62,529 bases of DNA from NCBI GenBank assembly GCA_943353835.1, contig CALRBA010000002.1, positions 1-62,529 of the forward strand, in the 5' to 3' direction. Under the pieces are notes generated by a model. That model had not been told where the DNA came from. It ran no database searches and saw only the letters and a program-made list of their open reading frames with translations. A program made the position numbers and the translations under genes. Numbering within the stretch: position 1 is the first letter of the stretch; each line of letters starts with the position of its first letter. The stretch comes from Candidatus Nomurabacteria bacterium (GTDB taxonomy: Bacteria > Patescibacteriota > Minisyncoccia > Phycocordibacterales > Phycocordibacteraceae). Below are positions 5,027 to 51,107 of this stretch, piece after piece.

Positions 5027-5536
5027 ATGCTTACTCCTCCAGCCGCACTTGAAGCCCTGCTTTTCGCCAATGGCGGACCGATTGATAAAAAACAGCTGGT
5101 GAGACTTCTTGCTCTCAACGACGCAGAACTGGCAGTGACTCTCGGGGTTTTGTCTGACTCACTCAAAGAACGCGGTATTACGATTGTTGAGACTGCAGGA
5201 GAAGTAGAACTTCGCACAGCTCCTGAAGCATCGGTTATAGTTAAGAAACTGCGCGAAAGTGAACTCTCTCGCGACCTAGGGAAGGCTAGTATGGAAACTC
5301 TGGCAGTTATTGCATACCAGACTGGAACGACGCGCGGTGAGATAGACTGGGTTCGCGGAGTTAACTCATCCGCGTCACTCCGCACGCTTCTCATTCGCGG
5401 TCTTATAGAGGGCAGGGAGGACGAACGCGATAAGCGCCGTATACGTTACAGTCTGACAACGGACGCTCTTGCATACTTAGGAATTTCTCGTGCTGAAGAG
5501 TTGCCGCGCGCCAAGGAATTTATGAAATCTGTATGA
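5027..5536 (+). CDS. scpB: Segregation and condensation protein B
   Basis: 169 aa. N-terminal EALLFANGGPI motif and two winged-helix-like halves. Confidence 0.85.
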   Translation: MLTPPAALEALLFANGGPIDKKQLVRLLALNDAELAVTLGVLSDSLKERGITIVETAGEVELRTAPEASVIVKKLRESELSRDLGKASMETLAVIAYQTGTTRGEIDWVRGVNSSASLRTLLIRGLIEGREDERDKRRIRYSLTTDALAYLGISRAEELPRAKEFMKSV

Positions 5537-6474
5537 ACATACCAGATTTACGACAACTCGCCCACGATACCCGCTCTATGCGCGAAGCAGGCATTACTCT
5601 TCTTATAGCATCGGCAGTTCTACTTCTTTTTCTCTTAGTACCGTTTGGGCCAAAGACCGTACCCGTCGAACCTGTCGCCACTAAGATAGTGCCGGACTCA
5701 TTTACTAATATCCCACTTCAAGCAAATGCCGTTATCGTCTATGACCTTGTAACAAAAGAGACTTTATATGCGAAGAATGCCGATGCACAGCTCCCGCTTG
5801 CCTCGCTCACAAAGCTTCTCACAGTCTATGCCGCACTCACGATATTATCGCCTGAAACTCCGATAATTATTCCTGAAAGCGCAGTATCGATTGACGGACC
5901 ACACACATTCTCTGTAGGACAGACATTTTCTCTTTCTGATTTAGCCCGTCTGACTCTGACCGCATCGTTAAATGACGGTGCCGTTGCTATAGCCAGCGCG
6001 ACTGCAGAGCGAGAAAGCCGGTCAGAGAGTGAGATGCTCGCTGGCGCGGCAGCCGCGCTTAATCTCTCGCAAACGTATGCGGTTAACGGTAGCGGTCTTG
6101 ACGTGAACACTATTATTTCAGGTGGCTATGGTTCTGCACGAGATTTAGCTCGTCTAGCAGGCGCAATTGTTGAAAAGGCTCCGTATATTGCGGAGGCTAC
6201 AACACAGAGCTTTGCAAAGGCAGTATCAGCAGGAGGAACGCTCTTTTCGGTAAAAAATACCGACCCGATAATCGGTTCAGTACAACGATTGCTTCTTTCC
6301 AAAACAGGCTACACGGACCTCGCGGGCGGTAATCTGGTACTCGTATTTGATGCTGGAATAAATCATCCGATAGCAGTCGTCGTTCTCGGCTCTTCGCTCC
6401 CGGAGCGATTCACTGACGGAGTCGCTCTTGTGGCAGCTACCATTGCACACTTCGCCGGAGTTGCATCTCTATGA
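5533..6474 (+). CDS. D-alanyl-D-alanine carboxypeptidase (S11 low-MW PBP), membrane anchored
   Basis: SxxK (ASLTKLLT), SxN (SLND) and KTG (SKTGYT) motifs, with an N-terminal TM helix. Confidence 0.8.
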   Translation: MNIPDLRQLAHDTRSMREAGITLLIASAVLLLFLLVPFGPKTVPVEPVATKIVPDSFTNIPLQANAVIVYDLVTKETLYAKNADAQLPLASLTKLLTVYAALTILSPETPIIIPESAVSIDGPHTFSVGQTFSLSDLARLTLTASLNDGAVAIASATAERESRSESEMLAGAAAALNLSQTYAVNGSGLDVNTIISGGYGSARDLARLAGAIVEKAPYIAEATTQSFAKAVSAGGTLFSVKNTDPIIGSVQRLLLSKTGYTDLAGGNLVLVFDAGINHPIAVVVLGSSLPERFTDGVALVAATIAHFAGVASL

Positions 6475-7550
6475 TTGACAGCACCAGCATTATTAAGGTA
6501 TTCATCCCTGCTACGGCGGCATTCGCAATCGGAATTTTATTCGCTCCGGTCCTCACACATTATCTGTACAAATATAAGATATGGAAGAAGGTGACGGGCA
6601 AGATTGCTCTAGACGGATCTACGGCCACCGAATTTGCAAAGCTACGCGAAAATCTTCACGCGGACACGGAAACAAGAACTCCAAGAATGGGAGGAATACT
6701 CATATGGGCGACGGTCGTTTTTGTTACTCTCGGGATATGGATACTCGCACAGATATTACCGTTTCCGTTTATTCAAAAACTTGATTTTTTCAGCAGAAGC
6801 CAGACATGGGTACCGCTTTTTACTCTCGTCGCCGGCGCTATAGTCGGATTCGTAAACGATGTTCTTGACGTACATCCTTCGGGAGAGAAGGGGATACGCC
6901 TGCGTACGCGACTCTTGTTCGTCTTGCTCATCTCAAGTTTTATAGGATGGTGGTTCTACGTAAAGTTGGGTATGGTTTCCATCGGCATTCCAGCGGACGG
7001 AACGCTGTATCTTGGTGCGCTTATTGTTCCTCTGTTTATGCTTGTGTCGCTCGGGCTCTACGCCGGAGGAGTAATAGACGGCATTGACGGACTTGCGGGA
7101 GGAATTTTCAGTACCGCTTTTATGGCATACGCCGGAATCGCATATTTTCAGAATCAGGTTAATCTGGCAGCATTTTCAGCGACATTGACCGGAGCGATAC
7201 TCGCTTTCCTTTGGTTCAATATTCCACCGGCACGTTTCTGGATGACGGAAACAGGTACCATGGGGCTCACTCTCACACTCGCAGTCATAGCATTCATGAC
7301 CGATACTCCGGGTAATGGTTACGGTATCGCGGCGCTTCCAATTATCGCATTTCCACTCGTCATCACAGTTTTTTCAAACATAATTCAAGTCGCGTCAAAG
7401 AAGATTCGCGGGAAAAAGGTTTTTAGAATCGCCCCTCTACACCACCATTTTGAGGCTATAGGCTGGCCTTCATATAAAGTGACTATGCGATACTGGATTA
7501 TTTCAATCGTCTGCGCAATTGTCGGTATGATAATCGCTCTTATTAAATAG
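6471..7550 (+). CDS. mraY: Phospho-N-acetylmuramoyl-pentapeptide transferase
   Basis: 359 aa polytopic membrane protein with APLHHHFE motif. ATGA-type overlap with the upstream gene. Confidence 0.9.
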   Translation: MIDSTSIIKVFIPATAAFAIGILFAPVLTHYLYKYKIWKKVTGKIALDGSTATEFAKLRENLHADTETRTPRMGGILIWATVVFVTLGIWILAQILPFPFIQKLDFFSRSQTWVPLFTLVAGAIVGFVNDVLDVHPSGEKGIRLRTRLLFVLLISSFIGWWFYVKLGMVSIGIPADGTLYLGALIVPLFMLVSLGLYAGGVIDGIDGLAGGIFSTAFMAYAGIAYFQNQVNLAAFSATLTGAILAFLWFNIPPARFWMTETGTMGLTLTLAVIAFMTDTPGNGYGIAALPIIAFPLVITVFSNIIQVASKKIRGKKVFRIAPLHHHFEAIGWPSYKVTMRYWIISIVCAIVGMIIALIK

Positions 7551-25968: not shown

Positions 25969-26424
25969 ATGGCTATCCACGAAACACTTAAGAAATCTAT
26001 TCCTGATGCACTTCGGGCGCATGACGAGGTAAAGCTTCGGACAATCCGCTCGCTCGTCACAGCGATGACGAACGAGGTCGTCGCCAAGAAACGAAAACCA
26101 GATGAATACCTCACCGACGATGAGGCATTCGTTGTTATTAAGCGTGCGGTCAATCAGCGCAAAGACTCTATAGAACAATTTGAGAAGGCATCCAGAAATG
26201 ACTTAGTAAAGCCCGAGAAAGCCGAACTAGTTATTCTGGAATCATATCTTCCCGCTATGATGAGTCGCGCCGAGATTATGACTATTGCAAAAGCAAAAAT
26301 GACCGAACTCGGCGTATCAACCAAGGCCGACGTCGGGAAATTCACTGGTACTTTAATGAAAGAGTTAAAGGGAAAAGCCGATGGCGGCGATGTGAAAGCT
26401 GTTGTGGACAGCTTGTTGTCGTGA
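25969..26424 (+). CDS. yqeY: GatB/YqeY-domain protein
   Basis: MAIHETLKKSIPDALRAHDEVKLRTIRSLVTAM... has typical YqeY length (151 aa) and pattern. The upstream part of the 259-aa ORF is antisense to rmuC. Confidence 0.8.
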   Translation: MAIHETLKKSIPDALRAHDEVKLRTIRSLVTAMTNEVVAKKRKPDEYLTDDEAFVVIKRAVNQRKDSIEQFEKASRNDLVKPEKAELVILESYLPAMMSRAEIMTIAKAKMTELGVSTKADVGKFTGTLMKELKGKADGGDVKAVVDSLLS

Positions 26425-26473
26425 TGAAAATAAGGTTTAATAATGGTCAGATTGTAACCACGGAGAATAATCC

Positions 26474-26719
26474 ATGAAAACGGAAGGAAAACCAAAACAA
26501 GTCCAGGAGGCGCGTTACCACGATGACCGCAAAGCTTTAAGCGCCATGGGTCGTAAAGGTGCGAGAATAGCTGCCGAGAATCGGGAACTGCAGAAAATAC
26601 GGAAGCAAAAAATCGTTGAAGAAGTAGCTGCAGAACAGGCCAAATTTCTCACTCTCTCGCCCGAAGGAGATGTTCTTCCGCCTGACCAAAATATAATTGA
26701 AGATTTTAAGAATCAATAG
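26474..26719 (+). CDS. Hypothetical small basic protein (weak KGG stress-repeat-like motif MGRKGA)
   Basis: 81-aa ORF followed by a strong intrinsic terminator. Confidence 0.45.
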   Translation: MKTEGKPKQVQEARYHDDRKALSAMGRKGARIAAENRELQKIRKQKIVEEVAAEQAKFLTLSPEGDVLPPDQNIIEDFKNQ

Positions 26720-26740
26720 ATTCTACGCGGATGGAGACTT

Positions 26741-26768
26741 AGCCGGTGACAACGCCGGCTTTTTTTTG
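26741..26768 (+). terminator. Intrinsic terminator
   Basis: AGCCGG-tgacaacg-CCGGCT hairpin followed by a T8 run. Confidence 0.85.
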
Positions 26769-26776
26769 TTATAAAA
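26760..26776 (+). promoter_or_regulatory. Extended -10 promoter box TTTTTTTTGTTATAAAA, copy 1
   Basis: TGT-TATAAA extended -10 preceded by a T-tract. An identical 17-mer precedes tRNA-Glu at 27159-27175. Confidence 0.55.
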
Positions 26777-26781
26777 GAAAT

Positions 26782-27141
26782 GAGGCCCTATCGTCCTTGA
26801 CTAAGAATATAAACACTACTACTCTGTACCATAGTAAGTAGCCCTTTCCACGGAACTCAACGAGAGGAGATACATCGAGCGCGGCGGAAGTTCCTTGTCG
26901 TTGCCTGAAGAATGCGGTGGCATTTTTTCTTTCAGGCGCAGGAATGGAGCGTCTGGCGAAAGCGTGGTTCTTGATTGGTGATCTAAGGACCATCCCGATA
27001 TCTCTATCTTCCTCCTTTAAGATAGGATCAACTTGATGTCCCGTGGTCACTAAGCTTGCTCTGCCATCGCAAGTTTCATTGCGGGCAAGAAAAGAACTGA
27101 ATCCATTCACGCACCCAGTATTACGGGTGCGTTCTATTTTT
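26782..27141 (+). ncRNA. Candidate structured ncRNA of unknown family (~360 nt, promoter to terminator)
   Basis: No plus-strand ORF of 60 aa or more. Bounded by the stable-RNA-like promoter box and a terminator (ACGCACCC-agtattac-GGGTGCGT followed by TCTATTTTTAT). Multiple internal hairpins, for example GCCTGAAGAATGC-GGTG-GCATT..TTCAGGC and CTATCTT-CCTCCTTT-AAGATAG. Confidence 0.5.
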
Positions 27142-27158
27142 ATACTTCCCTCTCTCAG

Positions 27159-27175
27159 TTTTTTTTGTTATAAAA
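27159..27175 (+). promoter_or_regulatory. Extended -10 promoter box TTTTTTTTGTTATAAAA, copy 2 (tRNA-Glu promoter)
   Basis: The -10 TATAAA ends 8 nt before the mature tRNA 5' end. Confidence 0.6.
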
Positions 27176-27182
27176 CATACAT

Positions 27183-27254
27183 GGCTCCATCGTCTAACGG
27201 TTAGGACAAGGCCTTCTCAAGGCTTAAATCGGGGTCCGATTCCCCGTGGAGTCA
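27183..27254 (+). tRNA. tRNA-Glu (anticodon CUC), no encoded CCA
   Basis: Manual cloverleaf: acceptor GGCTCCA/TGGAGTC, D stem GTCT/GGAC, anticodon stem AGGCC/GGCTT with loop TTCTCAA, T stem CGGGG/CCCCG with loop TCCGATT. Confidence 0.85.
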
Positions 27255-27263
27255 CACATTAAA

Positions 27264-28538
27264 TTACGCCTTTCGCTTCCACTCTTTTTCCTGACGGACG
27301 AGAAGTGAAGCGTCGAAAGGATCGGCGAGGAGTGCTTCTACGATGCGTTCTGTGCGGATAGATTGCGAGCCTTTTACTAGAACAACATCGCCTTCTATAA
27401 TTAGATTTGGAATAGCGAGCGCGGCAGAGCTAGCATTATCAAACAACATAACATTCGTACTTCCGTGTGCTGTGGCGAATGCTCTCGCGCGGATGCCTAT
27501 GGCGACGATTATATCGGCGGATTCGCTCGCGAGCGCTCCGATTCGCTCGTGCTCCATTACCGAGTAACGGCCGAGCTCCAGCATATCGCCAAGCACTGCA
27601 ATGCGCCGTTTCGCATGAGGAAACGATTTCAAAGTTGTGAGAGCTTCTTCAACCGCCACAGGCGATGCGTTATAGGAGTCATCAATAATAATAGAGTTAT
27701 TCTTACCGGTGAGCAGACGACCACGGCCCGGTGGCGGTTCATAACTTTTAAGCGCCTTCAATGCTTCATTAAGCGATATATTAAAAGCGCTCGCAGTAGC
27801 GAGCGCGGCCGCAACTGGCAGAATCTGGGTCGTCCCGACAGAGCCTTTCACGACCAAATCTTCTTTTTCTCCGTTTATAACCACACTCGCCTTCATTCCG
27901 ATAACCTTCCCGTCAATTTCATAAAATCCGACATCGTTGATTCTTACCATAGCATCGTCGGTAATGCCGTACGAAATTATACGTGCAGACGTTCTGACTG
28001 CATTATCCAGAGCGTACGGGTCGTCTACAGAGATGATTAGCGGCGCTCCAGTAGAAAGCGAATACGCAGGAAAAAATTCTTCTTCGCGTACGGCCTCCGG
28101 CGTCGCATACGCTTCAACATGTACAGGTATCTCCGGCAAACGCGTAACAACGACTGTATCAGGCGTAGCGATACGCAGTATTCTGAATAGGTCTCCCGGC
28201 TTATCGGCGCCTACTTCCAGCACGAGCATATTTGGATAATGATTCGGCAAAAAAATGAGTGCGAGAGAATTTTTTATAATTGAAACCCACGCGAGAGGAT
28301 TGCACCACGGATTTTTAACTCCAAGAATGGTAAACGGGACTCCGAACTCGCTGTTAAAACTCTTTTCACTCTTACGCACTAAGAAACGTTTTGATAACAC
28401 GGCAGCCACAGCATCTTTAGTAGAAGTCTTACCAACCGAGCCTGTTACCATCACGATGTGCGGTTTATATCTGCGCACAACCGTTCCTGCTATGAAAGCT
28501 AGAACTCCGGCGACAATAATTTTTAATAAGTTTTTCAT
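27264..28538 (-). CDS. murF: UDP-MurNAc-tripeptide:D-Ala-D-Ala ligase
   Basis: Mur ligase P-loop VTGSVGKTSTKD. 424 aa. Adjacent to ftsI. Confidence 0.85.
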   Translation of the reverse strand: MKNLLKIIVAGVLAFIAGTVVRRYKPHIVMVTGSVGKTSTKDAVAAVLSKRFLVRKSEKSFNSEFGVPFTILGVKNPWCNPLAWVSIIKNSLALIFLPNHYPNMLVLEVGADKPGDLFRILRIATPDTVVVTRLPEIPVHVEAYATPEAVREEEFFPAYSLSTGAPLIISVDDPYALDNAVRTSARIISYGITDDAMVRINDVGFYEIDGKVIGMKASVVINGEKEDLVVKGSVGTTQILPVAAALATASAFNISLNEALKALKSYEPPPGRGRLLTGKNNSIIIDDSYNASPVAVEEALTTLKSFPHAKRRIAVLGDMLELGRYSVMEHERIGALASESADIIVAIGIRARAFATAHGSTNVMLFDNASSAALAIPNLIIEGDVVLVKGSQSIRTERIVEALLADPFDASLLVRQEKEWKRKA

Positions 28539-50933: not shown

Positions 50934-51107
50934 CCCGCCACAACGTCATTCTCCTGTGCTATGGTTTGACACAGAAGAGCCTAAACCTTCTTGCGTTGGC
51001 AAGGGCATGGTTCGAAATCGCAGAACACAGAAACCCCGTCATCAGGGGCGTGTTCTGCGTTATAGGGGGAAACTCCTATAGGGCCGCAAGGCCCACCTGG
51101 TGGCGGG
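50934..51107 (+). ncRNA. Candidate structured RNA domain (five hairpins closed by a long-range helix), family unknown
   Basis: CCCGCCAC (50934-41) pairs with GTGGCGGG (51100-07). Inside this helix: CTCCTGTG/CACAGaaGAG; CTTGC-GTTG-GCAAG; CGCAGAACAC...GTGTTCTGCG with an inner CCCC-gtcatca-GGGG; TATAGGGG-GAAA-CTCCTATA; GGGCC-GCAA-GGCCC. The GNRA loops read correctly only on the + strand. Confidence 0.5.

Follow-up and report, generated by a model that had tools for sequence, protein, structure and literature searches.

The 360-nt segment located at positions 26782–27141 is, with a probability of roughly 0.7, a remnant, specific to this strain, of a DNA rearrangement at the tRNA-Glu(CUC) locus, and the RNA predicted from it would be a by-product without conserved function. 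The segment lies in the window, that is, the whole 62,529-nt stretch of DNA that was analysed. Its anatomy is composite, it is absent from relatives, and it matches no known RNA family. The unit is a mosaic of a tRNA promoter with a 12-nt tRNA stump, an orphan sequence, and a p81-type 3′UTR with its terminator. Two independent metagenome assemblies (contigs of 45.6 kb and 47 kb from two runs) are identical across 26300–27700; thus, the arrangement is not an assembly artefact.

Anatomy of the unit and its neighbourhood

The source of the window is, by its sequence, a Kaiserbacteria-like member of Patescibacteria (CPR). The Mur-ligase (murF-like) gene at 27264–28538 on the minus strand encodes a protein that shows 62–75% identity to those of 36 MAG loci labelled Kaiserbacteria, Paceibacterota, or Parcubacteria. 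The gene order around the segment is RmuC (−), YqeY (+), p81 (+), the 360-nt segment, tRNA-Glu(CTC) (+), the murF-like gene (−), and a PBP gene (−). Many relatives possess an identical gene order without the segment. The Pfam domains found in the neighbour genes are YqeY, RmuC, Mur-ligase, and transpeptidase, while p81 has no family match.

The p81 ORF (26474–26719, plus strand) encodes a small conserved protein of 81 aa with the motifs ALSAMGRKGA and SPEGDVLPP. Its codon-usage score of 0.245 is like that of real genes. Eleven homologues with 46–68% identity were found, none of them with a Pfam domain, and in relatives the gene is located directly upstream of tRNA-Glu. The members of the family (P0001–P0012) are 72–92 aa in length and lie, wherever detected in the clade, between YqeY and tRNA-Glu. 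The first motif, in the form ALSAMG[RK]KGA, and the second one look invariant, and the divergence of the N-terminal two-thirds is too high for an 85% alignment even to the close relative. The terminator of p81 (26741–26768, plus strand) consists of the hairpin AGCCGGTGACAACGCCGGCT and a T-run, which is common to this terminator and the promoter that follows. The same arrangement of terminator and promoter was found in the L010 locus.

This promoter, copy A (26760–26776, plus strand), comprises T8 and GTTATAAAA, with an extended −10 element TG-T-TATAAA at 26767–26775. The whole box, TTTTTTTTGTTATAAAA, has exactly two copies in the 62.5-kb window (26760–26776 and 27160–27176), with a distance of 399 nt; hence the earlier observation that identical boxes precede the unit and tRNA-Glu is correct, and they form an exact 17-nt repeat. 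This repeat is the core of a longer direct repeat of 36 nt with the same spacing and 81% identity, which takes in the first 12 nt of tRNA-Glu and is perfect only across the promoter box, not in the tRNA part. In an alignment of eight sequences (A1), copy A occupies invariant columns. It is followed by a tRNA-Glu stump (26784–26795, plus strand), GGCCCTATCGTC, corresponding to nucleotides 1–12 of the usual allele of the clade; these are the first 12 nt of tRNA-Glu in L010, L006, L020, L039, L040, and others. Copy A follows the family consensus through the stump, and the homology stops exactly after GTC. Past this point, copy A reads CTTGACTAAG, and all seven other sequences continue into the D-arm TA[A/T/G]CGG[T/C]TAGGAC.

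The next part of the unit is an orphan body of 246 nt (26796–27041, plus strand), which has no DNA or protein homologue. It contains a hairpin with the loop CCUCCUUU at 27011–27018. The body is succeeded by a stranded 3′UTR module (27042–27141, plus strand) with a hairpin at 27055–27094 and an intrinsic terminator with a U-tract at 27109–27132. The terminator scan found this terminator-like hairpin together with its T-tail, in agreement with the intrinsic terminator reported earlier for 27109–27141. The module is homologous to the p81 3′UTR of the L041 locus (positions 2468–2571; nhmmer E-value 4.8e-9, 74.5% identity over 106 nt), where the matching stretch comprises the stop codon of the p81 homologue, a two-hairpin 3′UTR, and the terminator, and is followed by the tRNA-Glu promoter. 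The two-hairpin fold is common to the module in the window and to L041 (z = −2.95 and −4.22, respectively), and the sequences of the inner stem differ. A metagenome scan with two conserved anchors of this 3′UTR gave no match. The description of the segment as a promoter-to-terminator transcription unit free of convincing ORFs is supported, since copy A is identical to the tRNA-Glu promoter of a close relative and the terminator then follows.

The second promoter region, copy B (27137–27176, plus strand), contains an TTTTTATACTTCCCTCTCT block, T8, and GTTATAAAA. It is typical of the clade and is kept in L006, L020, L021, L023, L026, L041, L009, and L032. Between the preceding terminator and the T-run of the tRNA-Glu promoter there is a conserved pyrimidine block, TTTATACTTCCCTCTCT (27137–27159), which is also present in L006, L020, L021, L023, L026, and L041, is placed differently in L010, and is missing from copy A; it may be a promoter-upstream or regulatory element.

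Copy B precedes an intact tRNA-Glu(CUC) gene (27183–27255, plus strand) with the acceptor strand GGCTCCA, the anticodon stem AGGCC/GGCTT, and the T-loop TCCGATT. The tRNA-Glu now in use is an odd allele for the clade. It is different throughout, has a matching 3′ acceptor strand, and is not a chimera. It shows 96% identity to the tRNA-Glu of the distant Parcubacteria L043–L045, which it matches in the anticodon arm and whose murF is only 43% identical. A metagenome scan with the anticodon arm of this allele revealed four distant Parcubacteria contigs, and their upstream DNA is unrelated to the segment. Among the aligned tRNAs, the T-loop TCCGAYT is found only in the tRNA-Glu(CUC) of the window and in that of L041 (2599–2671), while the other copies of the clade have TTCGAYT. 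It has a C where U55 is nearly universal; the tRNA of the window still scores 55 bits with the tRNA model.

The locus in relatives

A close relative is represented in the freshwater runs X5–X7. Its murF is about 99% identical to that of the window over 27501–28500 (12 differences), and its YqeY is 91% identical. The contig of the relative spans 26711–26795; its three differences all precede the promoter box, and past 26795 it reads TAGCGGCTAGGACACATCC... and TAGCGGCTAGGACACATCCTTCTCAAGGAT, an intact tRNA-Glu. Its contig on the murF side begins with TCATGCGATTTTGTTTATGATTTG, the tRNA 3′ end and spacer, 24 nt before 27274. Read depth in X5–X7 over 26817–27157 is zero at ≥85% identity, and the flanks are covered 7–100× (about 100× in X5 and X6). 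Given that the contigs of the relative continue into an intact tRNA and into murF, 26796–27273 appears to have replaced nucleotides 13–72 of the native tRNA and a short spacer, the state of the relative being reconstructed from short unitigs that are linked by similar depth only and not physically. The reverse event, a deletion between the repeats in the relative, was also considered and rejected; it would have left the tRNA body of the window, and both the tRNA body and the spacer of the relative differ from it.

The gap between p81 and tRNA-Glu is 84–121 nt in L002, L016, L021, L023, L026, and L036, which leaves no room for the segment in these relatives. The 31-mers of the orphan body were found in the index of public runs in only three runs, all from one lake-water study. 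Another study (X4, a sediment sample) contains a 151-nt contig that is 97% identical over 27011–27161, which indicates that the junction between the orphan and the 3′UTR exists in a second sample and is not unique to one population. Possibly, this arrangement is being maintained.

When comparing murF of the window with that of the close relative, an uneven distribution of differences can be noted: 27 differences are located in the 227 nt of 27274–27500, against the 12 in 27501–28500. The divergent patch at 27330–27414, in the 3′ part of the gene (minus strand), has 22 listed differences, and no difference was seen in the 56 murF nucleotides closest to the junction. The patch is AT-richer, with at least 22 of its 85 positions differing, mostly T/A in the window against G/C in the relative. 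This suggests a short gene-conversion tract.

Other relatives carry their own unrelated DNA and partial tRNA copies at the same place; hence the tRNA-Glu(CUC) locus is clearly a recurrent rearrangement hotspot. The L009 locus (5270–6660, as read on the minus strand) contains a promoter, a partial copy of tRNA-Glu, 135 nt of other sequence, an intact tRNA-Glu, and an insert of about 1 kb. The partial copy extends from nucleotide 1 to about 50 and has its anticodon loop mutated to CTTCCCAAG. The insert, with a 204-aa ORF without a Pfam match, is flanked by the direct repeat CCCGGTAGGGTCAC, which is the tRNA 3′ end, and looks like an integration scar. In L020 (about 5547–5625) and L032 (about 6538–6616), both on the minus strand, an element of about 80 nt separates the tRNA-Glu promoter from the tRNA. 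The element starts in a tRNA-like manner with GGCCCTACAGCCTAACGG, folds with a z-score of −3.71, and is closed in L032 by the perfect 12-bp stem GGCTGTAGGGCC, which has one mismatch in L020. It can be read either as a degenerate tRNA copy with an internal deletion or as a structured leader. A leader of 29 nt is present at the locus in L002, L016, and L036. Among L001–L036, tRNA-Glu(CUC) is codirectional with murF in ten relatives and runs opposite to it in sixteen, and the distance between the two genes varies from 1 nt to about 1.2 kb. Unrelated small ORFan genes are located downstream of murF in the close relatives L039, L040, and L010.

RNA families, homologues, and coding potential

The sequence-only reading had proposed that the segment might encode a structured ncRNA, perhaps RNase P RNA or tmRNA in a divergent form. 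This proposal is not supported: the segment matches no family and is absent from the close relative, and its body has no homologue in the collections searched. At the gathering score, the Rfam 15 matches in the whole window are two tRNAs and a LOOT RNA, and the unit itself has none. A scan of 26600–27300 with permissive filters did not reveal RNase P RNA, tmRNA, 6S, SRP RNA, or any other family at E ≤ 10 or at the gathering score; the weak scores obtained are far under the gathering thresholds and fall on terminators or the tRNA. Covariance models of RNase P RNA (RF00010, RF00011, and RF00373; core helices P1–P4, CR-I to CR-V) have no match in the unit, and tmRNA (RF00023 and its variants) was found in the window neither by ARAGORN nor by Rfam. 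The 5′ sequence GGCCCTA is without a complementary 3′ strand inside the unit. In eight related loci, the Rfam scan found tRNAs only.

Neither nhmmer nor blastn nor tblastx found a homologue of the body in 41 loci, of which 40 are from relatives, or in the rest of the window. This absence at the related loci is the kind of outcome that the sequence-only reading had itself named as speaking against an RNA gene. A blastn search of phage and plasmid collections gave no match to the body, and three 18-mers from it gave in IMG/VR either no match or seed-only chance matches that do not extend. Since no homologue of 26796–27041 was found in any collection searched, there are no covarying homologues and covariation cannot exist in the current data.

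The body folds with a z-score of −1.53, and 15 of 200 shuffled sequences fold as well as it does. Such a fold is no better than that of shuffles; its stability thus counts against a structured ncRNA. The segment had been called rich in hairpins, which holds only weakly: with z-scores of −1.99 (plus strand) and −1.91 (minus strand), the whole unit is barely more stable than shuffled sequence, and its stability stems mostly from the final 91 nt (z = −2.95). As for the supposed long-range pairing, CCGTGG lies at 27041–27046 as described, while CCACGG is at 26848–26853 and not at 26847–26852. The 6-bp pairing is missing from both the MFE and centroid structures and is no more than would be expected by chance.

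There is virtually no chance that the unit is a divergent or reduced RNase P RNA, tmRNA, 6S, or SRP RNA, and this reading can be considered effectively refuted. Its length of about 350 nt fits, GGAAGTTCC is indeed located at 26886–26894, and GGAAGUUCC loosely resembles CR-I. However, the likeness to RNase P RNA and tmRNA is in length only, since the unit lacks a covariance-model match, a tRNA-like domain, a tag ORF, and conservation in relatives. Its ends are demonstrably a tRNA stump and the 3′UTR of another gene. The segment is missing from the close relative, none of the relatives has it at the syntenic site, and a housekeeping RNA could not be absent from a sibling lineage; thus, the unit is not a housekeeping RNA. 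Its transcript is best read as a recombination by-product and not as a housekeeping or conserved ncRNA. A protein gene on the minus strand (26769–27110, 113 aa) is highly improbable as well. This frame is the sole long ORF, as had been stated earlier, it is open across the whole unit, and its codon score of 0.043 exceeds that of 92% of off-frame chunks. However, 95% of the real-gene chunks score higher, a plus frame has the same score, the putative GTG start falls within the terminator stem, the frame runs through the promoter box, and by eye no ribosome-binding site can be seen. The ORF has no Pfam match and was left uncalled by the gene caller on the contig of the same strain. It has 0 matches among 5.8 billion proteins and a lone marginal match of 36 aa (E-value 4e-4) among 1.84 billion representatives.

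The plus strand gives a similar picture. The statement that it contains no ORF longer than 30 codons is not accurate when GTG and TTG starts are allowed: ORFs of 31 aa (26746–26841), 39 aa (26917–27036), and 53 aa (27043–27204) appear, and two of the three extend beyond the unit. Codon-usage scoring revealed no gene-like score in any plus frame of the segment; the best frame in the body reaches 0.043, compared with 0.242 ± 0.09 in real genes. Gene calling on the contig of the same strain placed no gene in the segment. A 64-codon open stretch of the plus strand, like the minus ORF, gave no meaningful match in the protein searches.

Several other sources of the segment were checked and rejected. 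Tandem duplication of local DNA is not apparent: outside the 36-nt repeat, the segment scores 21 against the downstream 540 nt, the mean for shuffled sequences being 19. As for an interrupted, intron-like tRNA, the 3′ tRNA-like piece GATGTCCCGTGGTCAC is at chance level. The HMM of the p81 family has no match in the six-frame translation, which speaks against a decayed p81 paralogue, and tblastn and tblastx gave no match to the small ORFs that relatives possess at this site.

Origin of the rearrangement

The following course of events may be proposed. The ancestral layout, still seen in relatives, would have consisted of p81, its terminator, the T-run/GTTATAAAA promoter, tRNA-Glu, and the convergent murF-like gene. 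The native tRNA-Glu was presumably cut after nucleotide 12, and this point is now followed by about 480 bp, comprising the 246-nt orphan, the p81-type 3′UTR with its terminator, a second full promoter, and a different tRNA-Glu allele. Copy A has the sequence of the relative over the T-run, TG-n-TATAAA, and the first 12 tRNA bases and should therefore fire. In the relative, a promoter of this type drives the only tRNA-Glu(CUC) copy seen at the locus, and the same arrangement serves L010. Because of this identity with the tRNA promoter of the relative, the unit is probably transcribed, and we infer both its transcription and its lack of function from the sequence. RNA polymerase would most likely start near 26782 from the intact copy A, continue across the 12-nt stump and the orphan body, and terminate at 27109–27141, the stranded terminator. 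The resulting RNA of about 350 nt would be an accidental by-product without conserved function, while the working tRNA would be made from copy B.

We favour, as the origin of this scar, an import, from a related lineage, of DNA that would have been joined by homology at one end, in murF, and illegitimately at the other, within the tRNA gene. Homology-facilitated illegitimate recombination is defined by one homologous end and one junction without homology (PMC3240628), and discontinuous donor segments have been described after natural transformation (PMC13344027). At this locus, there is a divergent murF patch at 27330–27414 and an abrupt junction at 26795/26796. The combination of clustered murF divergence with a junction devoid of homology fits the import of diverged DNA. 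Like mosaic imports of this kind, the scar has clustered, discontinuous divergence at its homologous murF end, and its other end lies without homology in the tRNA. The 56 identical murF nucleotides nearest the junction imply that the import tract would be a mosaic and not one clean block. The organism of the window is presumably competent, which we take from the general gene content of CPR.

The main alternative on the origin is a scar made by a site-specific integrase, which we consider unlikely. A small element with its own promoter and a tRNA 5′ end would have entered tRNA-Glu in its 5′ part, with the 36-nt repeats as attL and attR and the 399-bp insert as a decayed remnant. tRNA genes are classical integration sites and well-known hotspots (PMC4891358, PMC11476347). 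As in the att-type scars of genomic islands and prophages at tRNA loci, direct repeats of tRNA-gene sequence bracket strain-specific DNA that is missing in relatives, a functional tRNA is kept at one end and a dead fragment at the other, and the locus has been hit repeatedly; the same tRNA shows in L009 a classical 3′-end duplication around the insert of about 1 kb. However, in the segment the duplicated part is the promoter and 5′ end instead of the 3′ end, which is reportedly the part usually duplicated at such scars. The insert is only 399 bp long, and no integrase or recombinase gene was found in it or in the neighbours scanned with Pfam; the murF-like gene and RmuC are without recombinase domains, and no ORF of the insert has a homologue. 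The whole tRNA allele past the repeat differs, not just one side of a crossover, and the repeat itself is imperfect in its tRNA part. The divergence also reaches into murF, and integrase recombination would not cause such a patch. Quite unlikely, too, is a young strain-specific regulatory sRNA that captured the tRNA promoter and whose predicted loop at 27011–27018 would pair with the Shine-Dalgarno sites of its mRNA targets. In favour of such an sRNA, the promoter and terminator are intact, the anti-SD-like loop is displayed on a 7-bp stem in both the MFE and centroid folds, and the orphan–3′UTR junction recurs in the second study. Like independent promoter-to-terminator sRNA genes of bacteria, the unit combines an extended −10 element with an intrinsic terminator, and its roughly 350 nt contain no convincing ORF. 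In contrast to such genes, it has no homologues, covariation, or unusual fold stability, and its promoter and terminator are borrowed from neighbouring genes; moreover, conservation is absent, the close relative lacks the segment, and a C/U-rich loop in 246 nt is not rare. It is most doubtful that promoter capture has created here a de novo sRNA gene whose RNA would be kept as a regulator of translation in a reduced CPR genome.

Read as a rearrangement scar, the segment shows that a clean, ORF-free promoter-to-terminator unit with the length of RNase P RNA can be a mere product of recombination, and that comparison with a sibling lineage quickly settles the choice between a scar and an RNA gene. 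Rearrangement scars at tRNA loci are ordinary events; what is unusual here is the organism. With its recurrent partial tRNA duplication, insertion, and inversion, the Kaiserbacteria-like tRNA-Glu(CUC) locus offers a small view of recombination in reduced genomes of uncultivated bacteria. From the comparison, a conserved tRNA promoter (a T-run and TGnTATAAA) also emerges for a group in which little is known about promoters.

Elsewhere in the window, the LOOT RNA (RF03000) is located at 50978–51094 on the plus strand and scores 73.6 bits against a gathering score of 46.4. An extended −10-like element, TGCTATGGT, lies about 25 nt upstream of it.
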